Shown here piece after piece: positions 7,565-26,380 of a stretch of 31,348 bases of DNA. This stretch comes from a virus (taxonomy: Duplodnaviria > Caudoviricetes). The position numbers were made by a program, and so were the translations under genes. The notes beneath the pieces were generated by a model, which was not told the DNA's origin, did not search any database, and saw only the letters and a program-made list of their open reading frames with translations. Position 1 is the stretch's first letter; each line of letters begins with the position of its first letter. Location of the stretch: positions 1-31,348 of IMG/VR virus record IMGVR_UViG_3300038520_000874. One strand, written 5' to 3'.

Positions 7565-7593
7565 TATATATCGTAAAAAAAAATGATTTTAGG
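7565..7593 (-). promoter_or_regulatory. Phage late promoter (CCTAAAA-N12-ACGATATATA), 3 nt before ATG 7561
   Basis: One of five copies with identical 12-nt spacing. Confidence 0.75.
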
Positions 7594-7597
7594 ACAT

Positions 7598-7622
7598 AAA
7601 AAAACCCCCTATAAAGGGGGTT
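7598..7622 (-). terminator. Rho-independent terminator
   Basis: AACCCCCT-TTAT-AGGGGGTT hairpin followed by a U-run on the minus strand. Confidence 0.8.
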
Positions 7623-7643
7623 ATATTTAACTTAAAGTTTTTT

Positions 7644-7769
7644 TTACATATTAAACTGTACGTTTTCTAAAAGAGTTTTTAAATCTCTTATCTCTAATTC
7701 GTTAAGATATTCTATGTTCCAAGAGTTGTCTATATTTTTGATTTCGTTGATGTAGTTAAACTTTGTCAT
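7644..7769 (-). CDS. Small moron-like protein (41 aa, MTKFNYINEIKNIDNSW...)
   Basis: AT-rich ORF with its own host-type promoter and a downstream terminator. Confidence 0.6.
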   Translation of the reverse strand: MTKFNYINEIKNIDNSWNIEYLNELEIRDLKTLLENVQFNM

Positions 7770-7796
7770 TTGTGTTTAGTTTTAATTATTATGATA

Positions 7797-7827
7797 CAAA
7801 TATACACCTTTTTTTGTTATGCACAAA
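7797..7827 (-). promoter_or_regulatory. Bacteroidota housekeeping-type promoter
   Basis: TATATTTG (-7 element, TAnnTTTG) at 7797-7804, with TTTG about 19 nt upstream. Confidence 0.7.
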
Positions 7828-7853
7828 TTTTAATAACTTTTTTTTAATTTTTT

Positions 7854-9065
7854 TTACCTAATTGCATATTTACCTCTGTTGGGGTTCTGTAATTGATAGC
7901 CCACAGCATAGCGGATTGCGTCAATTAAATGGCAATAAGCATCAACAGGCGTGTTTGATTTGCGCTCTAACCATCTGTAATTATTTAGTTCTTTAATTAA
8001 GTTTGTACTATCAGGGCTTACCACAAGGTCGTAGTCTTGCAATAGAGAGATGCCATAGGTTACACTACCCTGTCCTTTAATTGATGGCTTTACACTACAC
8101 CCTTTTGCTTTGAGTTCGTGTATAAGTCTTGGCTCTGCGCTATCGCCTACGATAAGCCCATCCTTAGCGTGTTTAAGGTTGAGTTGTGCGATCTGTGAGG
8201 TTGTGAGTCGAGGTAGGTAAAAACATTCCCTAAGATAGATTATTTTGTTATCTGTGTCTATGTTTGTTTCTACAAGTGTTGAGGGGTCTGCTGCAAAACC
8301 ATAGTCTTGCCCCCATACGCTAACGCCTTTCTTTTTAAACTCGCCAATAGTCCAATTATTAAATATCACACCCTCAGCTTTACTCATCCACGAGCCAAGC
8401 ATCTGTTGTTTGTACTTCTCAGGTCTACGCTGTTTCATTTGTTCTATCTGCTCTATGTAGCTTTCAGATAGATTGTCTAAGTTATCTAAGTATGTGGTGT
8501 GTATGTAGGTGGTGTTGTCCTTTTGCGTATTGCTACCTTCCTGTACTCCTTTATCCTCAAAGAATCGTGTATATACAAAATGCTCTTTTGTTGTAGGGTT
8601 GAGTATCAGGATAACTCTGTTCTGTTTGCCTTGCTGTCTTACTGATAAGTCTATGGTGTCAAACTTCTGTTCATCTGTTAGTTCCTCTGCTTCATCTACT
8701 ACCCAAGTTGTAATACCTGTAAGTGATTTAAGGTTTGCTGTCTGATCGCCTGAGCTTGTCTTAATACCCCTAAAGATAATATTGCTATTTGAGTGTTTGT
8801 TTATTATCTCATCTTTAGTAACATGGAAATCCCCTATACAATCCATCAGCTCTAACTTCTCTATAAACTCAGGAATGATTGAGATACGAGCAGATGTTAA
8901 AGTGTATCGTGTAAATAGGATTGTATGCCCTTGCTCATAAGTAAGCAAAACAAGCAAAGCATTTATTGAGAAAGACTTACCTGAACCCCTACCACCTGTA
9001 ACTACAAAGTATCTACTTTCGTTTGTAGATATTGGTAGGTATTTCTTATGTATGTTAATCGACAA
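7854..9065 (-). CDS. terL: Terminase large subunit (PBSX-type)
   Basis: Walker A GGRGSGKS, Walker B WVVDEAEE, coupling motif LNP, and nuclease motifs GQDYGF and HLIDAIRY. Confidence 0.95.
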   Translation of the reverse strand: MSINIHKKYLPISTNESRYFVVTGGRGSGKSFSINALLVLLTYEQGHTILFTRYTLTSARISIIPEFIEKLELMDCIGDFHVTKDEIINKHSNSNIIFRGIKTSSGDQTANLKSLTGITTWVVDEAEELTDEQKFDTIDLSVRQQGKQNRVILILNPTTKEHFVYTRFFEDKGVQEGSNTQKDNTTYIHTTYLDNLDNLSESYIEQIEQMKQRRPEKYKQQMLGSWMSKAEGVIFNNWTIGEFKKKGVSVWGQDYGFAADPSTLVETNIDTDNKIIYLRECFYLPRLTTSQIAQLNLKHAKDGLIVGDSAEPRLIHELKAKGCSVKPSIKGQGSVTYGISLLQDYDLVVSPDSTNLIKELNNYRWLERKSNTPVDAYCHLIDAIRYAVGYQLQNPNRGKYAIR

Positions 9066-9309
9066 ACTTAATTAAGTCCTTAAAGTTTATATTCAGCCCC
9101 TCAGATGAGTTAATATCCATACTCTCTTTTGGTTTACCATAACGATAGCTTAGGTATAGTTGAATCGCTCTCATATCGCCTTTTGCTACGAGTTCGCCTA
9201 ACTTAGAAAGAGCTGTATCGCTGTCTATGATCGCATCTAAGCGTTCTACTAATTTAGCTTCGTCTGCTTTGGGCTTTCTACCTGCCCCTTGTCTTGCACC
9301 TCCATGCAT
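9055..9309 (-). CDS. Putative terminase small subunit
   Basis: HGGARQGAGRK N-terminus; helical; directly upstream of and overlapping terL. Confidence 0.65.
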   Translation of the reverse strand: MHGGARQGAGRKPKADEAKLVERLDAIIDSDTALSKLGELVAKGDMRAIQLYLSYRYGKPKESMDINSSEGLNINFKDLIKFVD

Positions 9310-9333
9310 CTTGAAAAAAGTTGATTATTCAAG

Positions 9334-9362
9334 TATATATCGTAATTATTTAGGATTTTGTG
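9334..9362 (-). promoter_or_regulatory. Phage late promoter (ACAAAA-N12-ACGATATATA) for the terminase operon
   Basis: Same motif and spacing as the other copies, but 24 nt upstream of the ATG. Confidence 0.75.
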
Positions 9363-9474
9363 TACCCTTGTTTTCCTCTAATTGTTTTTCGTATAGTGCG
9401 CAGTCGTTACATTGAAACACGCATCGTGAGTAACTAAAATCATCATCAATACATACAAAATCATTTGCTGCCAT
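9346..9474 (-). CDS. Small Cys-rich protein (42 aa, MAANDFVC...RCVFQCNDC...)
   Basis: Manual translation; four Cys; fills the intergenic gap. Confidence 0.55.
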   Translation of the reverse strand: MAANDFVCIDDDFSYSRCVFQCNDCALYEKQLEENKGTQNPK

Positions 9475-9565
9475 CGTTATATCCTTTAAGGTATCCTATA
9501 AACCAAAAGAAAGCACAGAGTACTATTGTTGTTAAGAACCCACTAAAGTCCATATATAGTATCAT
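9461..9565 (-). CDS. Small membrane peptide (34 aa, MILYMDFSGFLTTIVLCAFFWFIGYLKGY...)
   Basis: TAATG overlap with the MTase stop; one hydrophobic helix. Confidence 0.55.
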   Translation of the reverse strand: MILYMDFSGFLTTIVLCAFFWFIGYLKGYNDGSK

Positions 9566-10188
9566 TAGAATAGTCTTTGTTGTTGTTTATGTTGTTCTAT
9601 TCGTTTCATGGCAGCTTCGTAATATTCTTTGTCGAGTTCGCACCCTGTAATCTCATATCCTAAATTATGACACGCTATTGCTATTGATCCACTACCTAAA
9701 TGAGTATCGAGTATCTTGTCATTTTCTTTTGCGTAATTCTCTAACAACCATTGATAAAGTCGTATAGGTTTTTCAGTAGGATGTATTGTATTTTGTTTTA
9801 ATAAATCAACTCTGTTTATATTTACTACTCTTGTCGCACAATTAAAACTACTATAAGCAAGTTCGCAATCGCTCATAGTAAGCCCTGTTTGACCTTTAAA
9901 CCAAACTACCCACCCTTTAGTTCCTTTTGTTAAGTGTTTAACAAAGTAATTAGCACCCCAAATGATTTGATTTTTTGACACTCTTTCTAATTCATTAAAA
10001 TACTTTTTATCAGGTATTTTATTATCCCATTGTTTCTGCTTGTGATATTTTCTGTCAGATTGCTTACCTTTTTTATTTTCTTTTTGACCATCAATACCTA
10101 AACCATAAGGTGGATCAACAATAGCAAGGTCGAAGTAGTTATCCTCATACCTTGCCATTAAATCCATGCAATCCTCGTTAGTTATCAT
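9565..10188 (-). CDS. DNA N6-adenine (N6/N4 family, beta class) methyltransferase
   Basis: DPPY catalytic motif, HPTEKP, and SAM-binding LDTHLGSGS after the catalytic motif. Confidence 0.9.
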   Translation of the reverse strand: MITNEDCMDLMARYEDNYFDLAIVDPPYGLGIDGQKENKKGKQSDRKYHKQKQWDNKIPDKKYFNELERVSKNQIIWGANYFVKHLTKGTKGWVVWFKGQTGLTMSDCELAYSSFNCATRVVNINRVDLLKQNTIHPTEKPIRLYQWLLENYAKENDKILDTHLGSGSIAIACHNLGYEITGCELDKEYYEAAMKRIEQHKQQQRLF

Positions 10189-10592
10189 CCTATAAGGTCT
10201 TTTGTAAATAGTTCATTTACTAAGTCGTGTGCTTTATCTAAGCTATCGTCAGACAAGTATTTTATCTTGTGTTCTATTGAGTTTATTTTTTCGTATTTGG
10301 TCGATAGCTCGTATTGCTTTATCATCTCGTCAAAGTATTCATTGAGCTTTGGGTTGTATCTTCTGTACATATTAAAGTTTTTCAATGAGTGCAATACTGT
10401 CGCATGATCCATAGGTTTACCTGTGTTTCTGTAAAAATCTCGTATCTGAGCTAAGGTCATGTTTTTAAAGTCATATAGTATCTTGTTAAGCAAAGACCTA
10501 ACCTCTACTACTTTAGATGATCTGCTATTTTCAAATACGTTTACGTCTGATAGCTTATTTATTCTTTTTGCTATTTTTAGTGCTTCTGTCAT
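10185..10592 (-). CDS. DnaA C-terminal-like HTH DNA-binding protein
   Basis: DHATVLHS signature of DnaA domain IV. Start placed at the ATGA overlap at 10592. Confidence 0.7.
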   Translation of the reverse strand: MTEALKIAKRINKLSDVNVFENSRSSKVVEVRSLLNKILYDFKNMTLAQIRDFYRNTGKPMDHATVLHSLKNFNMYRRYNPKLNEYFDEMIKQYELSTKYEKINSIEHKIKYLSDDSLDKAHDLVNELFTKDLIG

Positions 10593-11362
10593 AATGTTCC
10601 TGTTAAACAATAATTATCTAAGTCTGCGCCATGTATAAAAAAGGTTTCAAAAACTTCTATGGCTTCGTGTGTTTTTCTTTTACCCTCATTGTAAAACTCT
10701 TCTGATACATCGTATATTGCTATGTCAAGAGTTCCCTTATCTATTACACCGAATTTAAACTTGCTATAAGGCACATTGAACAATGAGCAGTAGATGTAGA
10801 TCTGTATATCATATCCATACTTACGAGCTGAGTAAGGGAATCCCTTTATGTCAGTTGTGGTCTTTAGGTCAACTATCTTGTTTTTACCTAACACATCTGC
10901 TTTTGCTCTAAAGGGATAACCACCTATCATACCACAGGCAGGTACTTCAAACTCGCTATTGTCTAAGAGTCTTAATGCCTGTTCGTTTCTTAGGAACGCA
11001 TCAGCTAATCGCTCTGCATCTCGTTTCTCTTTTATCGTGAATACTTTACCATGCTCTGATAGTGTTTCCTTATACTTCTTGGTGTTCTTGCTTTGCACAT
11101 CCACAAATATCTGATCGTTAAATACATCAGGTTCTAAGATTGCAGTATGAAACAACCACCCATCACGCAGGGCTTGACTATCAGGCGAACCATAGTCTGT
11201 AACAAACTTATACTTCTTTGGGCTTTGGTATAGCATCTTGATTGATGATGAGCTTAGTGCTGCCTTAGCCATATACCCATAGTAAAACTCATCTTCCTTT
11301 AATAAATCTATGAGGGTATCTTTCTTAAAGCGTTCCCCATTTAGTAGTGTTATATCGCTCAT
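10589..11362 (-). CDS. RecE / exonuclease VIII-like PD-(D/E)XK nuclease (DUF3799-like)
   Basis: LSSSSIK, G..FHTAILEP, KAD...IVDLKTT and YDIQ..Y motifs. Confidence 0.85.
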   Translation of the reverse strand: MSDITLLNGERFKKDTLIDLLKEDEFYYGYMAKAALSSSSIKMLYQSPKKYKFVTDYGSPDSQALRDGWLFHTAILEPDVFNDQIFVDVQSKNTKKYKETLSEHGKVFTIKEKRDAERLADAFLRNEQALRLLDNSEFEVPACGMIGGYPFRAKADVLGKNKIVDLKTTTDIKGFPYSARKYGYDIQIYIYCSLFNVPYSKFKFGVIDKGTLDIAIYDVSEEFYNEGKRKTHEAIEVFETFFIHGADLDNYCLTGTL

Positions 11363-11484
11363 CTTTGATCTGCTTCAAAGCAAGTTCCACTACAATACTC
11401 TGCTAACCTACCTACTTCTGTGCCACACATAGGGCATGAGTACTCAGGTTCTTCATTATACTTTAGCCAATCGCTATATTCCAT
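11359..11484 (-). CDS. Small zinc-finger protein (41 aa; CPMC...YCSGTC)
   Basis: Manual translation; ATGA overlap with the exonuclease start. Confidence 0.7.
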   Translation of the reverse strand: MEYSDWLKYNEEPEYSCPMCGTEVGRLAEYCSGTCFEADQR

Positions 11485-11722
11485 ATTTATTCTCTTTTAA
11501 ATTCTCTAACTCTTTCTCTGCTCGTCTTGCTCGTTCTACAAGTCTTTGAACAGATTGACGTTCATCTCGTAAAATACGCTTGAAACTGTATCTCTCTAAT
11601 TCTAATTGATTGATATAGAACACGAGTCGTACAGTTGCTTCTGATATCTTTTGTAGTTCCTCATTGTCTGATTTCTCCTGCCACTTGCTGATTGTTTCTA
11701 AAATCTCAGCAGAGTCAATCAT
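11474..11722 (-). CDS. Hypothetical coiled-coil protein
   Basis: ORF track entry; start re-called at MIDSAE (ATGA overlap at 11722). Confidence 0.6.
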   Translation of the reverse strand: MIDSAEILETISKWQEKSDNEELQKISEATVRLVFYINQLELERYSFKRILRDERQSVQRLVERARRAEKELENLKENKYGI

Positions 11723-11799
11723 ATATTGTAACTGACCCAAATGCATATCAAACAAATTATTAGTCCTATAAGTCCTAACTGTGCAAAGTCTATTTTCAT
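11719..11799 (-). CDS. Small membrane peptide (26 aa, MKIDFAQLGLIGLIICLICIWVSYNI)
   Basis: ATGA overlaps on both sides; single TM helix. Confidence 0.55.
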   Translation of the reverse strand: MKIDFAQLGLIGLIICLICIWVSYNI

Positions 11800-11936
11800 A
11801 ATCCTAAAAACTTTTTGGCTTTAGCCCACCACACATTCTGCGTGTAGTATAAGTTAAACTCCGTTTGTGTCATTACTTCTATCCTATCGCCTTTATTGAC
11901 GATGTATAATCCTGTGGGTGTTATTTTAAAAACCAT
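11796..11936 (-). CDS. Small hypothetical protein (46 aa, MVFKITPTG...)
   Basis: ORF track entry with the start re-called to ATG 11936. Confidence 0.6.
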   Translation of the reverse strand: MVFKITPTGLYIVNKGDRIEVMTQTEFNLYYTQNVWWAKAKKFLGL

Positions 11937-12055
11937 GCTCTTAGTATATAAGTTAATAATATGATGTCTAAAATAGCAATCCAAAAGCATAGAGCCATCA
12001 ATGCTATATACATTGTACCCTCTATGTTATTAATGTAATTAATTAATTTTCTCAT
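11921..12055 (-). CDS. Small hydrophobic early protein (44 aa, MRKLINYINN...IALMALCFWIAILDIILLTYILRAWFLK)
   Basis: First ORF after the host-type promoter at 12076; one TM helix. Confidence 0.65.
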   Translation of the reverse strand: MRKLINYINNIEGTMYIALMALCFWIAILDIILLTYILRAWFLK

Positions 12056-12075
12056 ATAATCGTTTTAATGTTATA

Positions 12076-12106
12076 CAAATATAATTAAAAAATGTTAATA
12101 AGCAAA
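12076..12106 (-). promoter_or_regulatory. Bacteroidota housekeeping-type (early) promoter
   Basis: TTTG-N19-TATATTTG, matching the -33/-7 consensus. Confidence 0.75.
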
Positions 12107-12108
12107 TT

Positions 12109-12249
12109 TTACTTTTTTCTGTACTGAACAGCACACACAGCAAGTCTTTGATCTGTGTTAGGATACTCTTTAATCATTGTAGGATTACCCATACAACGAG
12201 CCATAAAGTCCTTTCTGTCCTCTCGTGGTTTTGGTGTTGGTAATGGCAT
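12109..12249 (-). CDS. Small phage protein (46 aa, MPLPTPKPREDRKDFMARCM...DQRLAVC)
   Basis: Manual translation; resembles a recurrent small phage domain (P.P...F..RCM...QR.AVC), recalled rather than searched. Confidence 0.7.
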   Translation of the reverse strand: MPLPTPKPREDRKDFMARCMGNPTMIKEYPNTDQRLAVCAVQYRKK

Positions 12250-12251
12250 AA

Positions 12252-12914
12252 TTAACTATTTAAAATTTCTATACATAATTCGTGTGGTATCTTACTTCTT
12301 TCGTAATTGTTTCTTAGCCCCTGAGTTCCTTTACCTAAAGCACCTGCTGCTTTTTTAGCTGCGTATCCTCTTGGTTGTTTATCGTGATGACATTTTTCAT
12401 TACCATTAAAACATTCAGGTCTTGGATTCCATCCATTAGAGTTAAGTAAGCTGTAAAGGTTGTTAGTCCAAATGTCAGTCGGCTTTGCTCGTGTATCGCC
12501 ATACTTACAATACCATACTGTGGTGCGTGGCAAACCCATCATAAACTTTTGTTTTCTTAATAGTCCTCTTGGGTTTTCTATGTAAAAAACCAAGCGTGGA
12601 TTTATATTGCAAAAGTGTTCTATTATAGATAAAGTTTCTTTTACCATATTATCACTCTTTATTGCAAAATCAGATAATGGTTTATTGTGTGGTCTGTGAT
12701 GAGATATAGCCGCTATACTATAAGTTGTACAGGGTGGCGATGCCCATATAATATCAGGTGTGAATGGCACTTTGTTTATATCAAACTCTAATATATCTAC
12801 TGCATAGTCTATACCCTCAAACTCGTTTATATCACTACTAAACACATTGTAGCTCAAAGATTCTGCTGCTTTGCCTACTGATCTGCTACCTGCAAACAAC
12901 TCTAATACATTCAT
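12252..12914 (-). CDS. C5-cytosine DNA methyltransferase (short phage type)
   Basis: Motif I ELFAGS, motif IV ASPPC and motif VI IENP. Confidence 0.85.
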   Translation of the reverse strand: MNVLELFAGSRSVGKAAESLSYNVFSSDINEFEGIDYAVDILEFDINKVPFTPDIIWASPPCTTYSIAAISHHRPHNKPLSDFAIKSDNMVKETLSIIEHFCNINPRLVFYIENPRGLLRKQKFMMGLPRTTVWYCKYGDTRAKPTDIWTNNLYSLLNSNGWNPRPECFNGNEKCHHDKQPRGYAAKKAAGALGKGTQGLRNNYERSKIPHELCIEILNS

Positions 12915-13555
12915 ATATTAAGATGCATTATTGTATTAATCTTGTTTATCGTTTCCTGCTTATCTACTATACCATTGTTATCGTAGTAAACATAAACGTA
13001 GGGGGCAAACATACGAGCATAGTTCTCGTTTTTTTCTTTGTGGTTTTCTTTTGCTTTGTTTTGGTAAGTTGTGTTCATCATCTTATATGAGATAGGTTTT
13101 ATCTGTATCCCTAAGACAATGTAGTCATCTTTTATGATTTCTGCATCTATGCAATAGGTATGGTCTTTCTCAAAGTCTGTTTTGACTATATCTATATTGG
13201 TAAATTGTTCTTTTAGTTCGTCTATGATGCTAAGCTCTTGTTGATATCCGTTCCAAGTCTGTCCTATTACACGATAAAAAACATACTGCTTTACATCTTC
13301 AAGAGATATCCATTGGTTTTTTAGGTGTATGCGTTGACTCACATAGGATAGTTGTTTGTATCCTACTGAGCATTTATACGAGTACTCCCAATCCTTATGC
13401 GTTTTACTTTCGTGGTATTTGTGGAAGTCGCTTATTAGCTTCATACACTTACCTACATACTTTGTCTGAAAAAAGTGATTGACACTCTTGTCTTTGTTTA
13501 GCTTACGATATAAGGCATCGTCTAAAGGTTGTTTATACTTGTATGCCTTTGTCAT
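12911..13555 (-). CDS. MjaI-like PD-(D/E)XK restriction endonuclease-fold protein
   Basis: VIGQTWNG...E...D..YCID...LGIQIKPISY resembles the RE_MjaI-type catalytic pattern (from recall; needs an HMM search). Confidence 0.55.
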   Translation of the reverse strand: MTKAYKYKQPLDDALYRKLNKDKSVNHFFQTKYVGKCMKLISDFHKYHESKTHKDWEYSYKCSVGYKQLSYVSQRIHLKNQWISLEDVKQYVFYRVIGQTWNGYQQELSIIDELKEQFTNIDIVKTDFEKDHTYCIDAEIIKDDYIVLGIQIKPISYKMMNTTYQNKAKENHKEKNENYARMFAPYVYVYYDNNGIVDKQETINKINTIMHLNI

Positions 13556-13766
13556 ATAAAGTGTTTAGTTCGCTAATGTATTTTTGGATTACCCTTCTTG
13601 CTCTGTCATTAGGACATCCACAGGGTTTGGGTATATCAAGTTTGTGATCAAAGTATTTAGCGTGTAGCTTTGCAATCATCTCAATCTCGTGCTTATTAAC
13701 CACACCTCTAAGATTGCCTTTAAACTCAGTCCACTTGTCGTAGTCTTGTTTATTCAGATTTTTCAT
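13533..13766 (-). CDS. Hypothetical protein with PCGC motif
   Basis: ORF track entry; overlaps its neighbours. Confidence 0.6.
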   Translation of the reverse strand: MKNLNKQDYDKWTEFKGNLRGVVNKHEIEMIAKLHAKYFDHKLDIPKPCGCPNDRARRVIQKYISELNTLYDKGIQV

Positions 13767-13896
13767 TCCGATTTATTTTGATAGCGTTCCAAGATTCTCT
13801 ACGTCTATCGCACCCACAGTCAGGGTATATCTTCTTATATATATAGCGAATCCCTGTGTATTTTGTAAAATAATATACTAAATCTCCTAATCCCAT
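13750..13896 (-). CDS. Small protein (48 aa, MGLGDLVYYFTKYTGI...DCGCDRRRE)
   Basis: Manual translation; GLGD...TGI...DCGC..R pattern; fills the gap. Confidence 0.7.
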   Translation of the reverse strand: MGLGDLVYYFTKYTGIRYIYKKIYPDCGCDRRRESWNAIKINRNEKSE

Positions 13897-14375
13897 ATCT
13901 TGTTTCTTTTTGTTGAATTGTCATCTCGCCACAATGGCTGAATGTTTGTATAGTGAAATAATTTAATTACTTCATCTATTGTCTTAGCAGTATCTAAAGG
14001 AATAATGTGGTCAAATTGCCAATTATCTTTTCCACTACCATAATTTTCTAAAGTCATTCCATCTTGAAATTTACTAACTATATAACGCTCAAATTGCTCA
14101 CGACTATTTACTTTTAAAACTTTCATAATTCTATTGTCAGTCCATTTATTTCTACGCCAACCCTGTGTAAGATGCGCCCTTAAAATTTGCTTCTCTCTAT
14201 ATACAGGGTCATTATGCCATTTATGCTTTCTTGTCTTATTTTGTTTTATCATATATTGAGGATTGTTTTTAATATCCTCTCGTTTACATTTTTTGCAAAA
14301 AGTATAATCTTTACTATATTCTGTAAATGGCTTTAAGACGTTACATCTGCTACAAGTTTTTGCATCTAATCCCAT
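13887..14375 (-). CDS. HNH (homing-type) endonuclease with N-terminal Zn finger
   Basis: CSRC...CKKC; WQFDHIIPL...HYTNIQPLW..DN..K. Confidence 0.8.
   Translation of the reverse strand: MGLDAKTCSRCNVLKPFTEYSKDYTFCKKCKREDIKNNPQYMIKQNKTRKHKWHNDPVYREKQILRAHLTQGWRRNKWTDNRIMKVLKVNSREQFERYIVSKFQDGMTLENYGSGKDNWQFDHIIPLDTAKTIDEVIKLFHYTNIQPLWRDDNSTKRNKIWD
13887..14375. repeat. 10-bp direct repeat ctaatcccat at 13887-13896 and 14366-14375
   Basis: Exact copies form the first and last 10 nt of the HNH gene. Confidence 0.85.
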
Positions 14376-14863
14376 TCTATATTGTTTTTGATTAGTTGTT
14401 TAACATTCTTGTAGGTATTGTATAGAGAATAATAAGATATGTTTGTTTTTCTTGCTAACTCTGCAATAGGCATACCATCGCTTACAATCTCAAACACAGT
14501 CCTATCATACCAAAAGGTTTTGTCAAGCAGGTTGTCCATTTGCTTCATAGCACCACAGATATCTACTTGTTTTGCTTCCCCTTGATCGTCTATAAACTCA
14601 GACAGAATGTCTATGTTAGTTTTTATGATTTTTTTTTCCTTTCTGTGCAAGTCAATAAATAAACCCCTGAGCTGTTTGTAAATGTAGTAGTAGTTTATAT
14701 CATCATTGTAAGATATGTCTATGCCCTTCTCGATATACTTGTGCATCATAAGATACATCTCCTGCACAATATCTTCTGCTACTGATTCCTTGCATCCAAA
14801 CGATAACACGATCCTATGCCAATCCTCGTGCTTCTCTGCAATCTTCTCTAAAGTGGTTTTCAA
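14366..14863 (-). CDS. ECF-like sigma-70 family RNA polymerase sigma factor
   Basis: 165 aa; region-2 AEDIVQE motif; C-terminal HTH (MPIAELARKTNISYYSL). Confidence 0.75.
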   Translation of the reverse strand: MKTTLEKIAEKHEDWHRIVLSFGCKESVAEDIVQEMYLMMHKYIEKGIDISYNDDINYYYIYKQLRGLFIDLHRKEKKIIKTNIDILSEFIDDQGEAKQVDICGAMKQMDNLLDKTFWYDRTVFEIVSDGMPIAELARKTNISYYSLYNTYKNVKQLIKNNIEWD

Positions 14864-15768
14864 AATGGTAAATCTGTTTGTTCTTTGGTATTGTAAGTTA
14901 CTAAATTTTTTCCATCTATTTCAAACCCTACATTGTTTAAGATACTTCTAAACTTAACAGGGTCATCTATTGGTGTGGGTTTGTACCCTAATTCTTGGTT
15001 TTTTACCTTCGCTGAATATAGATTTGAGTATATCCAATCCGTTTCATGGTAGATGTATCTATGTATCACAAGAAAATCATCAGCTCTGTTAATAGATTGT
15101 CCACCGAGTTCACTATCAGAAGCCATAGGTGGTATCGGATGACCTGAGTAGTAATGACCTTGTGGGTGTCGTTTTCTTAGAGCTTCGGTTACCGCATGAA
15201 CACATATCCAAGTTGTAATGTTATGTTGTTTGCAGAATATGCGTATATCAGTTAGACTTTCATATCCATACTCATAGCTATTAGAGTTCTTAGGAATGTC
15301 TTTTTTTAAACTATTAAGTGGATCAATTAAGAACCCTTGATAATCCCATGCCTTCTTTACAGCAGTTGCAAGTTCTAAAAGGTCTTTATATGTGTACGAC
15401 TTCTCGGTATCTACAAACTTAAAATGATCAAATACCCATTCGTATTGCTTTTGAAAGTCCTCTGTTTCTATTTGATTAATTGGTTTCCCCTCTGCAAACT
15501 CTATAATCTTACGGATGAGCGCATAGGGTTCGTTCTCACTACTAAACACAAGCCAACGGACATTGTGCTTAAGTGAGTACAAAAACATTAAGTAAAATAC
15601 TAAGTGTGTTTTCCCTGTATTGGCGTGTCCCAACACAAAATTCATATTACCATATACGAGCCTAAAGTGATTGTCTAATCTATCAACCCCTAAGCGTAAA
15701 CCCTCGTTTACTTTTCCTGCTCGTATATCATTAAGTTTCTTGAGGTGTTTGTCAAAGTTTATTAGCAT
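14860..15768 (-). CDS. DnaB-like (SF4) helicase
   Basis: Walker A GHANTGKT, SSEN, Walker B LIDP, and CVH and RAD motifs. Confidence 0.85.
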   Translation of the reverse strand: MLINFDKHLKKLNDIRAGKVNEGLRLGVDRLDNHFRLVYGNMNFVLGHANTGKTHLVFYLMFLYSLKHNVRWLVFSSENEPYALIRKIIEFAEGKPINQIETEDFQKQYEWVFDHFKFVDTEKSYTYKDLLELATAVKKAWDYQGFLIDPLNSLKKDIPKNSNSYEYGYESLTDIRIFCKQHNITTWICVHAVTEALRKRHPQGHYYSGHPIPPMASDSELGGQSINRADDFLVIHRYIYHETDWIYSNLYSAKVKNQELGYKPTPIDDPVKFRSILNNVGFEIDGKNLVTYNTKEQTDLPF

Positions 15769-15772
15769 TTGG

Positions 15773-15780
15773 TAAAGTTA
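15773..15780 (-). promoter_or_regulatory. Possible -7 element (TAACTTTA) 4 nt before the helicase ATG
   Basis: TAnnTTT(G/A)-like sequence immediately after a terminator. Confidence 0.4.
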
Positions 15781-15783
15781 TAT

Positions 15784-15808
15784 AAAAAAAGGGGGTGGTT
15801 AGCCCCCT
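15784..15808 (-). terminator. Rho-independent terminator
   Basis: AGGGGG-loop-CCCCCT followed by a U-run, after the SSB gene. Confidence 0.8.
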
Positions 15809-15813
15809 ATTTG

Positions 15814-16140
15814 TTAAAATGGTAAATCTGCTCTGTCAGGTGCGTGTTCTTTGGCTTCGACACCCTCTGCTTGTTTGTGGATTTTCCATGCTTGGATTGT
15901 GTTAAACACTTTTACATCGCCTTGTGGATTAGTCCACTCACGACCTCTAAGGTTATACTGAACCTCTACATGATCGCCTTCGTTGTAAGAGTCTAAAGTT
16001 GTGCATTTATCGTTTGAAAATATCACGCTTAATATCTGAGGATATTGCTCTTTAGTGTTTAATACAAGTTCTCTAAATTGATAATTACCTTTTGTAGTAG
16101 TTTGACCTACTCTCTTTACTGTCCCAATAATACTACCCAT
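15814..16140 (-). CDS. Single-stranded DNA-binding protein (DUF3127-like)
   Basis: EQYPQ...NLRGREW...FNTIQAWKI and a C-terminal DLPF tip. Confidence 0.85.
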   Translation of the reverse strand: MGSIIGTVKRVGQTTTKGNYQFRELVLNTKEQYPQILSVIFSNDKCTTLDSYNEGDHVEVQYNLRGREWTNPQGDVKVFNTIQAWKIHKQAEGVEAKEHAPDRADLPF

Positions 16141-16495
16141 TATTCACAAAGTTTATTAATAGTTGCGCATCGTGTATAACTGTTTCTATATCTGCGTTCG
16201 GTCTTGATGCGTGAAAGTCCGCAGCAGCTTTTACCATACTTTGACGAACAATAATCTGTTCTCTGTTTGCAGTCGGTGCTGCTTGTATGGGTTTGTTGTA
16301 TATGAGCTTCGCTGTGTTGTATTGCTCATTCGTAATTTCAAAGTCGATGGTTTCGCCCACCTGCTTTTTAAATTCGCCTTTGGCTAAAAACTGATAGTTG
16401 TTACCATTTGCGAGATACACCTGATACTTATTGAAAGTACCTGATGCGTTTGTATAAGTACCCTTCGGTTCTATTTGAGTTATCTTACTCTGCAT
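16133..16495 (-). CDS. Hypothetical protein, possible ssDNA-binding/annealing function
   Basis: OB-like N-terminus plus IVRQS..KAA helical C-terminus; next to SSB. Confidence 0.5.
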   Translation of the reverse strand: MQSKITQIEPKGTYTNASGTFNKYQVYLANGNNYQFLAKGEFKKQVGETIDFEITNEQYNTAKLIYNKPIQAAPTANREQIIVRQSMVKAAADFHASRPNADIETVIHDAQLLINFVNNG

Positions 16496-16595
16496 AATAT
16501 AATTCTAATTGTTGTTCTAAAATTTCTATATGAGCTTCTAATTCTAATATTCTATTGCTCATACTTTCTATCCTTGCCCTATCAAAGTCCTTCAT
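16485..16595 (-). CDS. Small coiled-coil protein (36 aa, MKDFDRARIESMSNRILELE...)
   Basis: Manual translation; bridges its neighbours. Confidence 0.55.
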   Translation of the reverse strand: MKDFDRARIESMSNRILELEAHIEILEQQLELYYAE

Positions 16596-16770
16596 GAGTT
16601 CCACTATATAATCCATATCGCTTATCTTCTTCTATCTTAAACATATCAAGTACATCGTACAAGCTATTAAGGTTTTGAGTGGACATCATCGCGTCATCTT
16701 TGTTCGCGAGTGTGTAAGTAACAGCATACAATATAGCATTCTGTTCTTTTGTATTTAAATTAAATTTCAT
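16582..16770 (-). CDS. Early hypothetical protein (62 aa, MKFNLNTKEQ...)
   Basis: Start re-called to ATG 16770, downstream of the promoter; the track's longer start crosses a terminator. Confidence 0.65.
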   Translation of the reverse strand: MKFNLNTKEQNAILYAVTYTLANKDDAMMSTQNLNSLYDVLDMFKIEEDKRYGLYSGTHEGL

Positions 16771-16792
16771 GTTAAAAGTTTTAATGTTTGTG

Positions 16793-16823
16793 TAAATATA
16801 TAAACTTTTTTTAATAAAACAAA
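16793..16823 (-). promoter_or_regulatory. Host-type early promoter (TTTG...TATATTTA)
   Basis: Near-consensus -33/-7 elements upstream of 16770. Confidence 0.55.
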
Positions 16824-16886
16824 AGGGGGGCAAAGAACCCCCCAAAAGCATAACATTAAAACGTACCCTAAAAGAATAGGATAGTG
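16816..16886 (-). ncRNA. Candidate trans-acting small RNA (~70 nt)
   Basis: Promoter TACCTTTG at 16887-16894; 5' hairpin UAUCCUA/UAGGGUA; single-stranded CGUUUUAAUGUUAU; terminator GGGGGGU-UCUUU-GCCCCCC-UUUUGUUUU. Confidence 0.6.
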
Positions 16887-16894
16887 CAAAGGTA

Positions 16895-17293
16895 CTATTT
16901 CATTTTCTTTTTAACAAGGTCTGTGTATTTAGTTATTAACGCTTCTAACTCGTAGTTTTCTAACTTAACAATCTGCTTAGACTTTTGTAACAACCCCTCA
17001 GCAGTACCATCCCCAAAGTCTTTGTTAAGATTAAGACCAAACACATAAGACATACCTTGCTCAAACATATTACACTTAACACATTGTACGTTGCAATTCA
17101 TCTCATCCCATCTTGTGCTATATGATTTCCTTGACATGAAATGACCACATTGTAGTTTTTTCCAATGGTCTTTTTTACCACAGGTGTAGCACTCCGCTAT
17201 CCCCTGAGCATCAGCGTTTCTAAGTCGTATGTACTGACTAAAGACAGTATCTAAACGCTTTACAAGATTCTTGCGTGAAACCTTTTTAGACAA
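16895..17293 (-). CDS. NinG/Rap-like recombination nuclease
   Basis: FSQYIRLR...CYTCG...CGHF.SR...RWDE.N...QCVKCN. Confidence 0.85.
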   Translation of the reverse strand: MSKKVSRKNLVKRLDTVFSQYIRLRNADAQGIAECYTCGKKDHWKKLQCGHFMSRKSYSTRWDEMNCNVQCVKCNMFEQGMSYVFGLNLNKDFGDGTAEGLLQKSKQIVKLENYELEALITKYTDLVKKKMK

Positions 17294-17456
17294 CTGCGTT
17301 ATCTAAGATTTGTATGATGTGTCGTATCTCTGACTTCTCAAACTTACCCTCAATAGAAGCATTATACGTTTTGAATGTTAAGTGATACATATCTTTCTCT
17401 GTATCCCCTTTAAGTTCTTTTTTACCTAAGTAATCTATTTTTAAATCAAATTTCAT
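17286..17456 (-). CDS. Small hypothetical protein (56 aa, MKFDLKIDYLGKK...)
   Basis: Manual translation; overlaps the NinG start. Confidence 0.65.
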   Translation of the reverse strand: MKFDLKIDYLGKKELKGDTEKDMYHLTFKTYNASIEGKFEKSEIRHIIQILDNAVV

Positions 17457-17464
17457 TTTTTTTG

Positions 17465-17556
17465 TTTTAATATAATATATATAATATAATATATAATATA
17501 ATATATAATAAATATATATTTATAAATATACTAATTATAATATATATATATATATA
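17465..17556. other. Almost pure A/T tract with TATAA/TA repeats; candidate replication origin
   Basis: About 90 bp with a single C, at the boundary between the lysis and replication modules. Confidence 0.45.
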
Positions 17557-26350: not shown

Positions 26351-26380
26351 TATATATCGTAAAGTTTCTGAATTTTGTAT
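26351..26380 (-). promoter_or_regulatory. Phage late promoter (ATACAAAA-N12-ACGATATATA), 3 nt before ATG 26347
   Basis: Exact motif and spacing. Confidence 0.75.

Follow-up and report, generated by a model that had tools for sequence, protein, structure and literature searches.

Directly behind the ninG gene of the phage studied here lies a short unit with the features of a small RNA gene, and the complement of its middle part recurs in front of distant genes of the same genome. The question is whether this unit encodes a trans-acting RNA and, if so, which genes it would address. The window, that is, the whole stretch of DNA analysed (31,348 bases), is a virus record rated as complete, and its recognisable genes all lie on the minus strand. 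They encode portal, tail, endolysin, holin, terminase, single-strand DNA-binding protein, helicase, a sigma-like protein, methyltransferases and a NinG/Rap endonuclease. Among the 49 window proteins, the PHROGs scan, in which many small proteins fell into no family, found no integrase, repressor or antirepressor.

The host of this uncultured phage is likely to belong to the marine Flavobacteria. The TAHHTTTG boxes, the capsid match to Nonlabens phage P12024 and the relatives on MAG contigs all point to Flavobacteriia. These MAG contigs are two short ones, titled Wocania and Flavobacteriales, and were the only matches of the genome_contigs search. No close cultured relative was found, the best matches being at most 36% for ninG and about 30% for the capsid (Nonlabens phage P12024). 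IMG/VR holds 551 ninG relatives of this phage, and relatives were found in seawater and sediment libraries.

Some other features of the genome were recorded. The motif CG(A/T)TATATA stands a few bases 5' of the ATG in structural and packaging operons (31287, 26359, 9342 and 7573 on the minus strand of the window). It was also present in the contigs L004, L027, L050, L060, L066, L067 and L075, and was not found in L079. It is a candidate late promoter, perhaps served by the sigma-like gene at 14366-14863. An almost pure AT tract of low complexity, possibly an origin or a promoter region, lies between the holin end and gene 17456; at this site, relatives of the window's own lineage (lineage A, see below) carry the same tract or another cassette with a TAACTTTG-type box. 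A 214-aa protein (12911-13555, minus strand) matches the MjaI restriction endonuclease family (E 7e-8), and its gene is immediately followed by one for a DNA methyltransferase (12252-12914).

The predicted RNA unit and its matches in the window

The unit follows ninG and consists, in this order, of a -7 box, a 5' hairpin, a U-rich seed and a terminator (Table 1). In F. johnsoniae, the start site is described as lying 4-5 nt past the TAHHTTTG box (PMC6847099). We set +1 at the fifth base past the box on this basis, which gives a predicted RNA of about 66 nt (~16882-16817); in the 120 boxed loci the predicted length was 48-73 nt. Folding gave -24.9 kcal/mol (z -4.8) for the minus strand and a poorer -16.2 (z -2.8) for the plus strand. 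A U-G pair on the minus strand is part of the 5' stem, as the preliminary description of this locus had proposed. Its coordinates for the box, the seed, both complements and the 8-nt cores were all correct on recheck. The mean unpaired probability of the seed was 0.79.

The unit is present in a single copy in the window genome, and no other box-terminator unit was found at 41 terminators. Rfam gave nothing at the gathering score, only 11 weak and unrelated matches around the unit. This held for Rfam 15, a release from which the FopS model is possibly absent. Twelve RNA runs, all as contigs, were available. Over 7600-17440, relatives were found in 25-28 of 30 bins in four libraries from two studies; such contigs show no strand, ends or level.

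Table 1. Positions of the unit, its putative target tags and the associated genes in the window
Feature	Position	Strand	Remarks
NinG/Rap junction endonuclease gene	16895..17293	-	PHROG 5034, E 5e-29; constant upstream neighbour of the RNA unit
Predicted -7 promoter box TACCTTTG, TAHHTTTG type	16887..16894	-	directly past the ninG stop codon
5' hairpin of the predicted RNA	16864..16883	-	begins at predicted +1, ~16882
Putative seed CGTTTTAATGTTAT	16850..16863	-	invariant core GTTTTAATGTT at 16862-16852
Predicted intrinsic terminator, hairpin (16843-16825) and U tract	16816..16843	-	from folding and relatives
Putative target tag, gene 12055 leader	12061..12074	-	own box TATATTTG at 12083-12076
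44-aa hydrophobic small protein	11921..12055	-	detected here only in lineage A
Putative target tag AACATTAAAAC	16778..16788	-	at predicted +1 of gene 16770; own box TATATTTA at 16800-16793
62-aa protein	16582..16770	-	first gene of the block ending with the single-strand DNA-binding protein
Weaker tag, gene 7769 leader, 8-nt core and flanking pairs	7779..7792	-	own box at 7804-7797
8-nt core, gene 17456 leader	17464..17471	-	fourth of 59 candidate starts; likely chance

The preliminary description had named four leaders as targets of the seed, with the 44-aa hydrophobic peptide of gene 12055 as the best. An IntaRNA-like script that compared 59 candidate starts indeed placed this leader first (-13.8, or -8.6 if trimmed at +1). 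The 14-nt complement of the seed is present at -19..-6 of the ATG; with a predicted mRNA start at ~12071, only about 11 of the 14 matching bases would lie inside the primary transcript. The tag was retained in 14 of 15 lineage-A homologues, and L301 has lost it at the 44-aa gene. The 44-aa protein has a hydrophobicity of 2.5, only nine close homologues, no PHROG or Pfam match and atlas matches below 0.9. The gene 16770 leader ranked second. Its tag, an 11-nt complement of the seed, begins exactly at the predicted mRNA 5' end and was present in 27 of 27 lineage-A loci; the 62-aa product is not hydrophobic. These two putative targets are conserved.

Gene 7769, whose leader ranked third (8-nt core at 7786-7779), is a probable target. 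It is the window's gene in a small-gene island after terL, and other lineages carry 9-15-nt matches to their own seeds in 22 of 56 island leaders, which supports 7769 as a weak target. The island (7590-7810) consists of variable small genes with a host-type box and a terminator, with one gene here and up to 12 candidate starts in relatives. Gene 17456 was rejected as a target: among 24 lineage-A homologues, the core occurred in one, namely the window itself. For the function of the target proteins, there was no useful PHROG, Pfam or atlas match. Apart from these leaders, a box variant, TAACTTTA, stands exactly 4 nt before the helicase ATG (window 15768-15780, minus strand) in 25 of 25 lineage-A loci, and a leaderless mRNA is therefore predicted. 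The helicase is without the tag in lineage A (0/25); the helicase leaders of lineages B and G are tagged.

In the window, AACATTAAAAC has three copies, one being the seed and two lying in leaders; shuffles gave an expectation of 0.06, for a pattern that was chosen post hoc. The 8-nt core alone is weak, with 11 copies against 4.4 expected and several of them in coding DNA. Against shuffled seeds, the window by itself was borderline (p=0.047, or 0.16 without the adjacent leader). The strength of the signal comes from the relatives and not from the window alone.

Conservation of the unit and joint change of seed and tag

ninG was used as the anchor for collecting relatives. NinG searches yielded 80 + 80 loci from viruses and 2 from genomes. 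After 18 repeats of contigs already included and 2 loci without a terminator call were dropped, there were 143 loci including the window; 23 of them were swapped for fuller contigs, and boundaries were set by hand for L026, L050, L053, L244, L246 and L247. A strict TAHHTTTG box 12-50 nt before the terminator was present at 109 of the 143 loci, many of them near-identical and not independent, compared with 0 of 41 other terminators in 19 representatives. A looser scan with a seed-plus-box pattern returned 119 loci, mostly chance-looking, and was discarded.

Lineage A comprises 27 loci and was grouped by the seed core GTTTTAATGTT, so that the core is found in 27/27 by grouping. Here the box varies only at the two free (H) positions. 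The 5' part has been replaced, with 12 different sequences, and the core was kept. In all 12 of these 5' sequences a hairpin begins at the fifth base past the box, with shuffle p<=0.02 in 11. A hairpin from +1 in all variants, together with a box that varies only where it is free to, is expected from a selected, discrete transcript. The terminator showed one compensatory and several one-sided changes in six aligned loci. RNAalifold on six lineage-A units recovered the terminator only, since the 5' hairpins do not align; they were hence folded singly.

Among the boxless loci, 15 of 22, most of them from one clade, had no leader match of 9 nt or more. L033, L309 and L079 matched their own leaders strongly, and L012, L013 and L262 weakly. 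The idea that promoterless loci are always without matches is contradicted by L033, L309 and L079, which indicates that an own promoter is not required everywhere. L033 and L309 have, just past ninG, a hairpin, an AT-rich seed and a terminator without a detected box, with 15-16-nt matches to their own leaders; this form is possibly a processed 3'-UTR RNA. In the clade L011-L020, L023, L024, L064, L260-L262 and L267, the terminator and a U-rich stretch are retained, but a box is missing and matches to own leaders are nearly absent; the system has possibly been lost there.

The seed types differ by lineage (GTTTTAATGTT in A, GTCTTTTA in B, TTGTTTT in C and TGTTCTGTT in D, with further types in E, F and G) and follow the NinG tree, a quick tree of 133 columns with many open forks that was used only for this comparison. 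The loci share ancestry, and at the level of lineages they offer only some five to six seed types. In a permutation test, each seed was scored against the leaders of each phage, with the adjacent leader excluded. Own leaders scored higher than foreign leaders, with means of 5.74 and 1.77 (p=1e-5) when 19 of the 77 eligible loci were taken as representatives without a common 11-mer, and of 6.0 and 1.48 (p=8e-5) for a set of 10 without a common 9-mer. None of the controls (sense, reversed, unreversed-complement, coding, flank) reached significance. The control region -53..-25, by contrast, also scored (p=0.0014), possibly through miscalled starts. Some boxed loci showed no preference for their own genome, which ranked 18 of 19 for L027, 15 for L005, 12 for L070, 10 for L049 and 8 for L080. 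The preliminary description had named a lack of covariation in relatives as grounds for rejecting the idea, and this comparison gave no such grounds.

The gene-family, de novo 8-mer and hydrophobic-target results, the match counts for boxless loci, the tag retention at genes 16770 and 17456 and the spread (sd) of tag distances are inflated by a start-picking rule that favoured own matches; the permutation test and its controls are free of it. A seed-blind search for enriched leader 8-mers recovered the reverse complement of the respective seed in B, C, D, G and L079. In A the matching 8-mer came third in the ranking, and lineages E and F and the promoterless set gave no match. One 60-aa family swaps its tag with the seed, being of AACAGAACAG type in 16 of 18 D loci and carrying TTAAAAGACA in 5 of 5 B loci. 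Of 52 family-by-lineage cells, 45 were won by the own seed over foreign ones. The tag also precedes additional genes that are inserted in L271 and L007. Within lineage A, the base flanking the seed tracks the leader of the distant 44-aa gene (C/G 8, T/A 3, T/G 1, mismatched 2; n=14), and the adjacent leader has T at this position in 15 of 15 aligned loci.

Own matches of 9 nt or more concentrate at -15..-5 of the ATG. They are short (9-14 nt) and AU-rich. In 15 long contigs, the first count gave matches in 43 of 376 early and 26 of 416 other leaders (p=0.011), and most of the 26 lay in the variable island after terL. With the island classed apart, a post hoc decision, matches were found in 65 of 432 early or island leaders and in 4 of 360 late leaders; leaders of structural genes were nearly free of them. 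Overall, the feature is real and conserved, and the comparative support for a putative phage sRNA addressing the phage's own early-type genes is good.

Proposed role of the RNA and rival explanations

We consider it probable that the unit is a ~66-nt trans-acting sRNA whose seed would pair with lineage-specific tags of the phage's own likely early genes and block ribosome loading. The host RNA polymerase is predicted to transcribe the RNA from the host-type box. The single-stranded seed would pair with the tag at about -17..-6 of likely early genes, and ribosomes would not load at the tagged leaders. Here the conserved targets would be 16770 and 12055, both of which come first after a host-type box. 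Gene 7769 is probably a further target, and up to about ten leaders are tagged in other lineages. Matches that are antisense only, anchored to the ATG, distant and multiple fit a trans-acting RNA that would cover the initiation region. In F. johnsoniae, efficient initiation is associated with adenines at -14..-11 and -3 (PMC6847099). Because the tag covers this A-rich -14..-11 stretch, and FopS represses through such regions, we infer by analogy that pairing represses.

Transcription of the unit and a delayed timing we infer as well. The RNA and its targets share host-type boxes, and the stable, hairpin-capped RNA may accumulate while the short-leader mRNAs turn over. Late transcripts ending at the same terminator would supply extra seed-bearing RNA. 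From the candidate late motif at 26359 down to the unit, a crude scan detected no terminator, so that late transcripts would end in the seed. The strong matches in the boxless L079, L033 and L309 are consistent with such a supply from an upstream transcript. Early genes would in this way be restrained with a delay, and no repressor protein would be needed. A wider version is an RNA-only address code, in which one RNA reads the tags of the early genes and, since seed and tags change jointly between lineages, also excludes superinfecting kin, with the seed type as the exclusion group; we put it forward tentatively and regard it as rather doubtful.

The main rival for the role of the RNA keeps the same pairing and assigns it to kin recognition, silencing the early genes of a second related phage, or to dormancy in a starved host, with tag switching as an escape. 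The data do not separate this role from self-timing. In its favour, each lineage has a fixed seed and tag, which change jointly between lineages as immunity determinants do. Moreover, c4 RNA underlies P1/P7 heteroimmunity (PMC12197685), and a promoter of host type would not depend on the expression of phage genes. However, the lack of integrase, repressor and antirepressor among the 49 window proteins in PHROGs and the mere two genome_contigs matches, both short MAG contigs, speak against it, and we hold this role to be unlikely. The inverted match might also be local, through cis pairing with the adjacent downstream leader by read-through or through template switching, the distant tags being copies of that leader. 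Seed and 16770 leader do pair around the terminator when co-folded, and the adjacent leader matches at 9 nt or more in 51 of 77 loci. Yet the own-versus-foreign signal persists with this leader excluded, 22 of the 77 loci match distant leaders and not the adjacent one, and the seed-flanking base in lineage A tracks the distant gene; local pairing also leaves the conserved box and 5' hairpin unexplained. It is in our view quite improbable. Still less probable is that the tag is a DNA site (an operator or an initially transcribed sequence) or a generic A-rich Bacteroidota leader, the inverted copy being another site or chance. The DNA and RNA readings overlap in lineage A, where the tag begins at the predicted +1, all tags are A-rich and the 8-nt core is common; but only the antisense orientation scores, and the tags follow the ATG more closely than the box in lineage B (sd 1.3 and 5.3) and lineage C (sd 1.8 and 7.9), a contrast that is small in D, with both distances tight in A. 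No box stands near 42 of the 78 matched leaders, and foreign U-rich seeds score one third as well. In 61 Flavobacteriaceae genomes (211 Mb), the lineage-A tag followed by ATG occurred 115 times and the reversed control 91 times, so that 0.017 would be expected per 31 kb against the two seen in the phage. The tag is thus not enriched in these genomes and would not be a generic host leader. The preliminary description had itself raised generic A-rich leaders as a possible source of the matches, and both the failing controls and this near-background count argue against them.

Two further readings have very little to recommend them. The preliminary description had likened the unit to type I toxin-antitoxin control, which would make it the antitoxin of the 44-aa hydrophobic peptide. 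In favour of this, the 12055 match is the longest in the window, the tag is kept in most homologues of this hydrophobic protein, and trans-acting antitoxins with 16-21-nt matches exist (PMC4041452). The two genes are, however, 4.8 kb apart in the window (3.5-4.8 kb across the listed lineage-A loci), and the tag is found more constantly at the 62-aa gene, whose product is not hydrophobic. The unit is kept in lineages B and D despite a small hydrophobic target in 0 of 18 and 1 of 21 loci, respectively. Only 6 of 118 matched gene families are small and hydrophobic, none of them in the 18 lineage-B loci, and the analogy was dropped; we give this reading hardly any credence. The same slight chance attaches to protection or activation of early mRNAs by shielding of their 5' ends. 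The lineage-A duplex would cover the first ~11 mRNA bases, but the tags of other lineages lie inside operons and are tied to the ATG, and the tag covers adenines that PMC6847099 connects with enhanced initiation. Repression in trans stays our preferred reading.

Comparison with known RNAs

FopS/GibS are small RNAs of Bacteroides thetaiotaomicron. As described in PMC11697453, FopS is 65-70 nt long, with a single-stranded seed (R1/R1'), an intrinsic terminator and a canonical sigma-ABfr promoter; it was shown to block translation and binds RbpB, and its family model is stated there as deposited. The unit is similar in its predicted length, its mostly unpaired seed, its terminator and its predicted host-type promoter box, found in strict form in 109/143 loci. 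Unlike the unit, of which the phage has one copy, FopS is, by the same paper, a 14-copy host family with one conserved seed, directed at host glycan-uptake mRNAs (susC/PUL), whereas the predicted targets of the unit are the phage's own genes. The seed and tag of the unit are replaced jointly between lineages, and lineage A adds the 5' hairpin.

The c4 RNA of P1/P7 pairs in trans near phage ribosome-binding sites, and its own sequence sets phage specificity, as the review PMC12197685 describes; for the unit, the likeness is one of complementarity only. The phage that encodes c4 is temperate and has a single antirepressor operon under its control, whereas the unit matches several scattered early-type leaders. 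The Rfam model C4 (RF01695) did not match the unit at gathering score or at E<=10. The RNAs sar (P22), OOP and aQ (lambda) and STnc6030 (BTP1) likewise act by base pairing in phage development or superinfection exclusion. According to the same review (PMC12197685), they have one target each, and those that are classed are cis-encoded; the unit, by contrast, matches short repeated tags kilobases away. The type I pair RalR/RalA shares a short antisense match with the unit, one target of which encodes a small hydrophobic peptide. The toxin and antitoxin genes, as presented in PMC4041452, are adjacent and dedicated, whereas the unit is distant from its targets, which are multiple and mostly non-hydrophobic. 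Judged by these features, the unit would resemble FopS in its working and, as a phage RNA, c4, and it appears to belong neither to these families nor to the type I pairs.

The phage sRNAs described in the review PMC12197685 have either a single phage transcript or genes of the host as their targets, and six non-coding RNAs are reported for Cellulophaga phage phi38:1 (PMC5335546). Our literature search, mostly of open-access journals, found no report of an RNA like the one proposed here. One sRNA addressing a class of its own early genes by a co-evolving tag would differ from the reviewed phage sRNAs. If the reading is true, a widespread group of uncultured phages would have a protein-free shut-off of early genes. 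The natural seed/tag pairs of lineages A, B, C, D and G are ready-made compensatory mutants, and the silencing of early genes in small Bacteroidota phages can therefore be tested in F. johnsoniae without culturing the phage. The same pairs could serve as orthogonal translational switches in F. johnsoniae.
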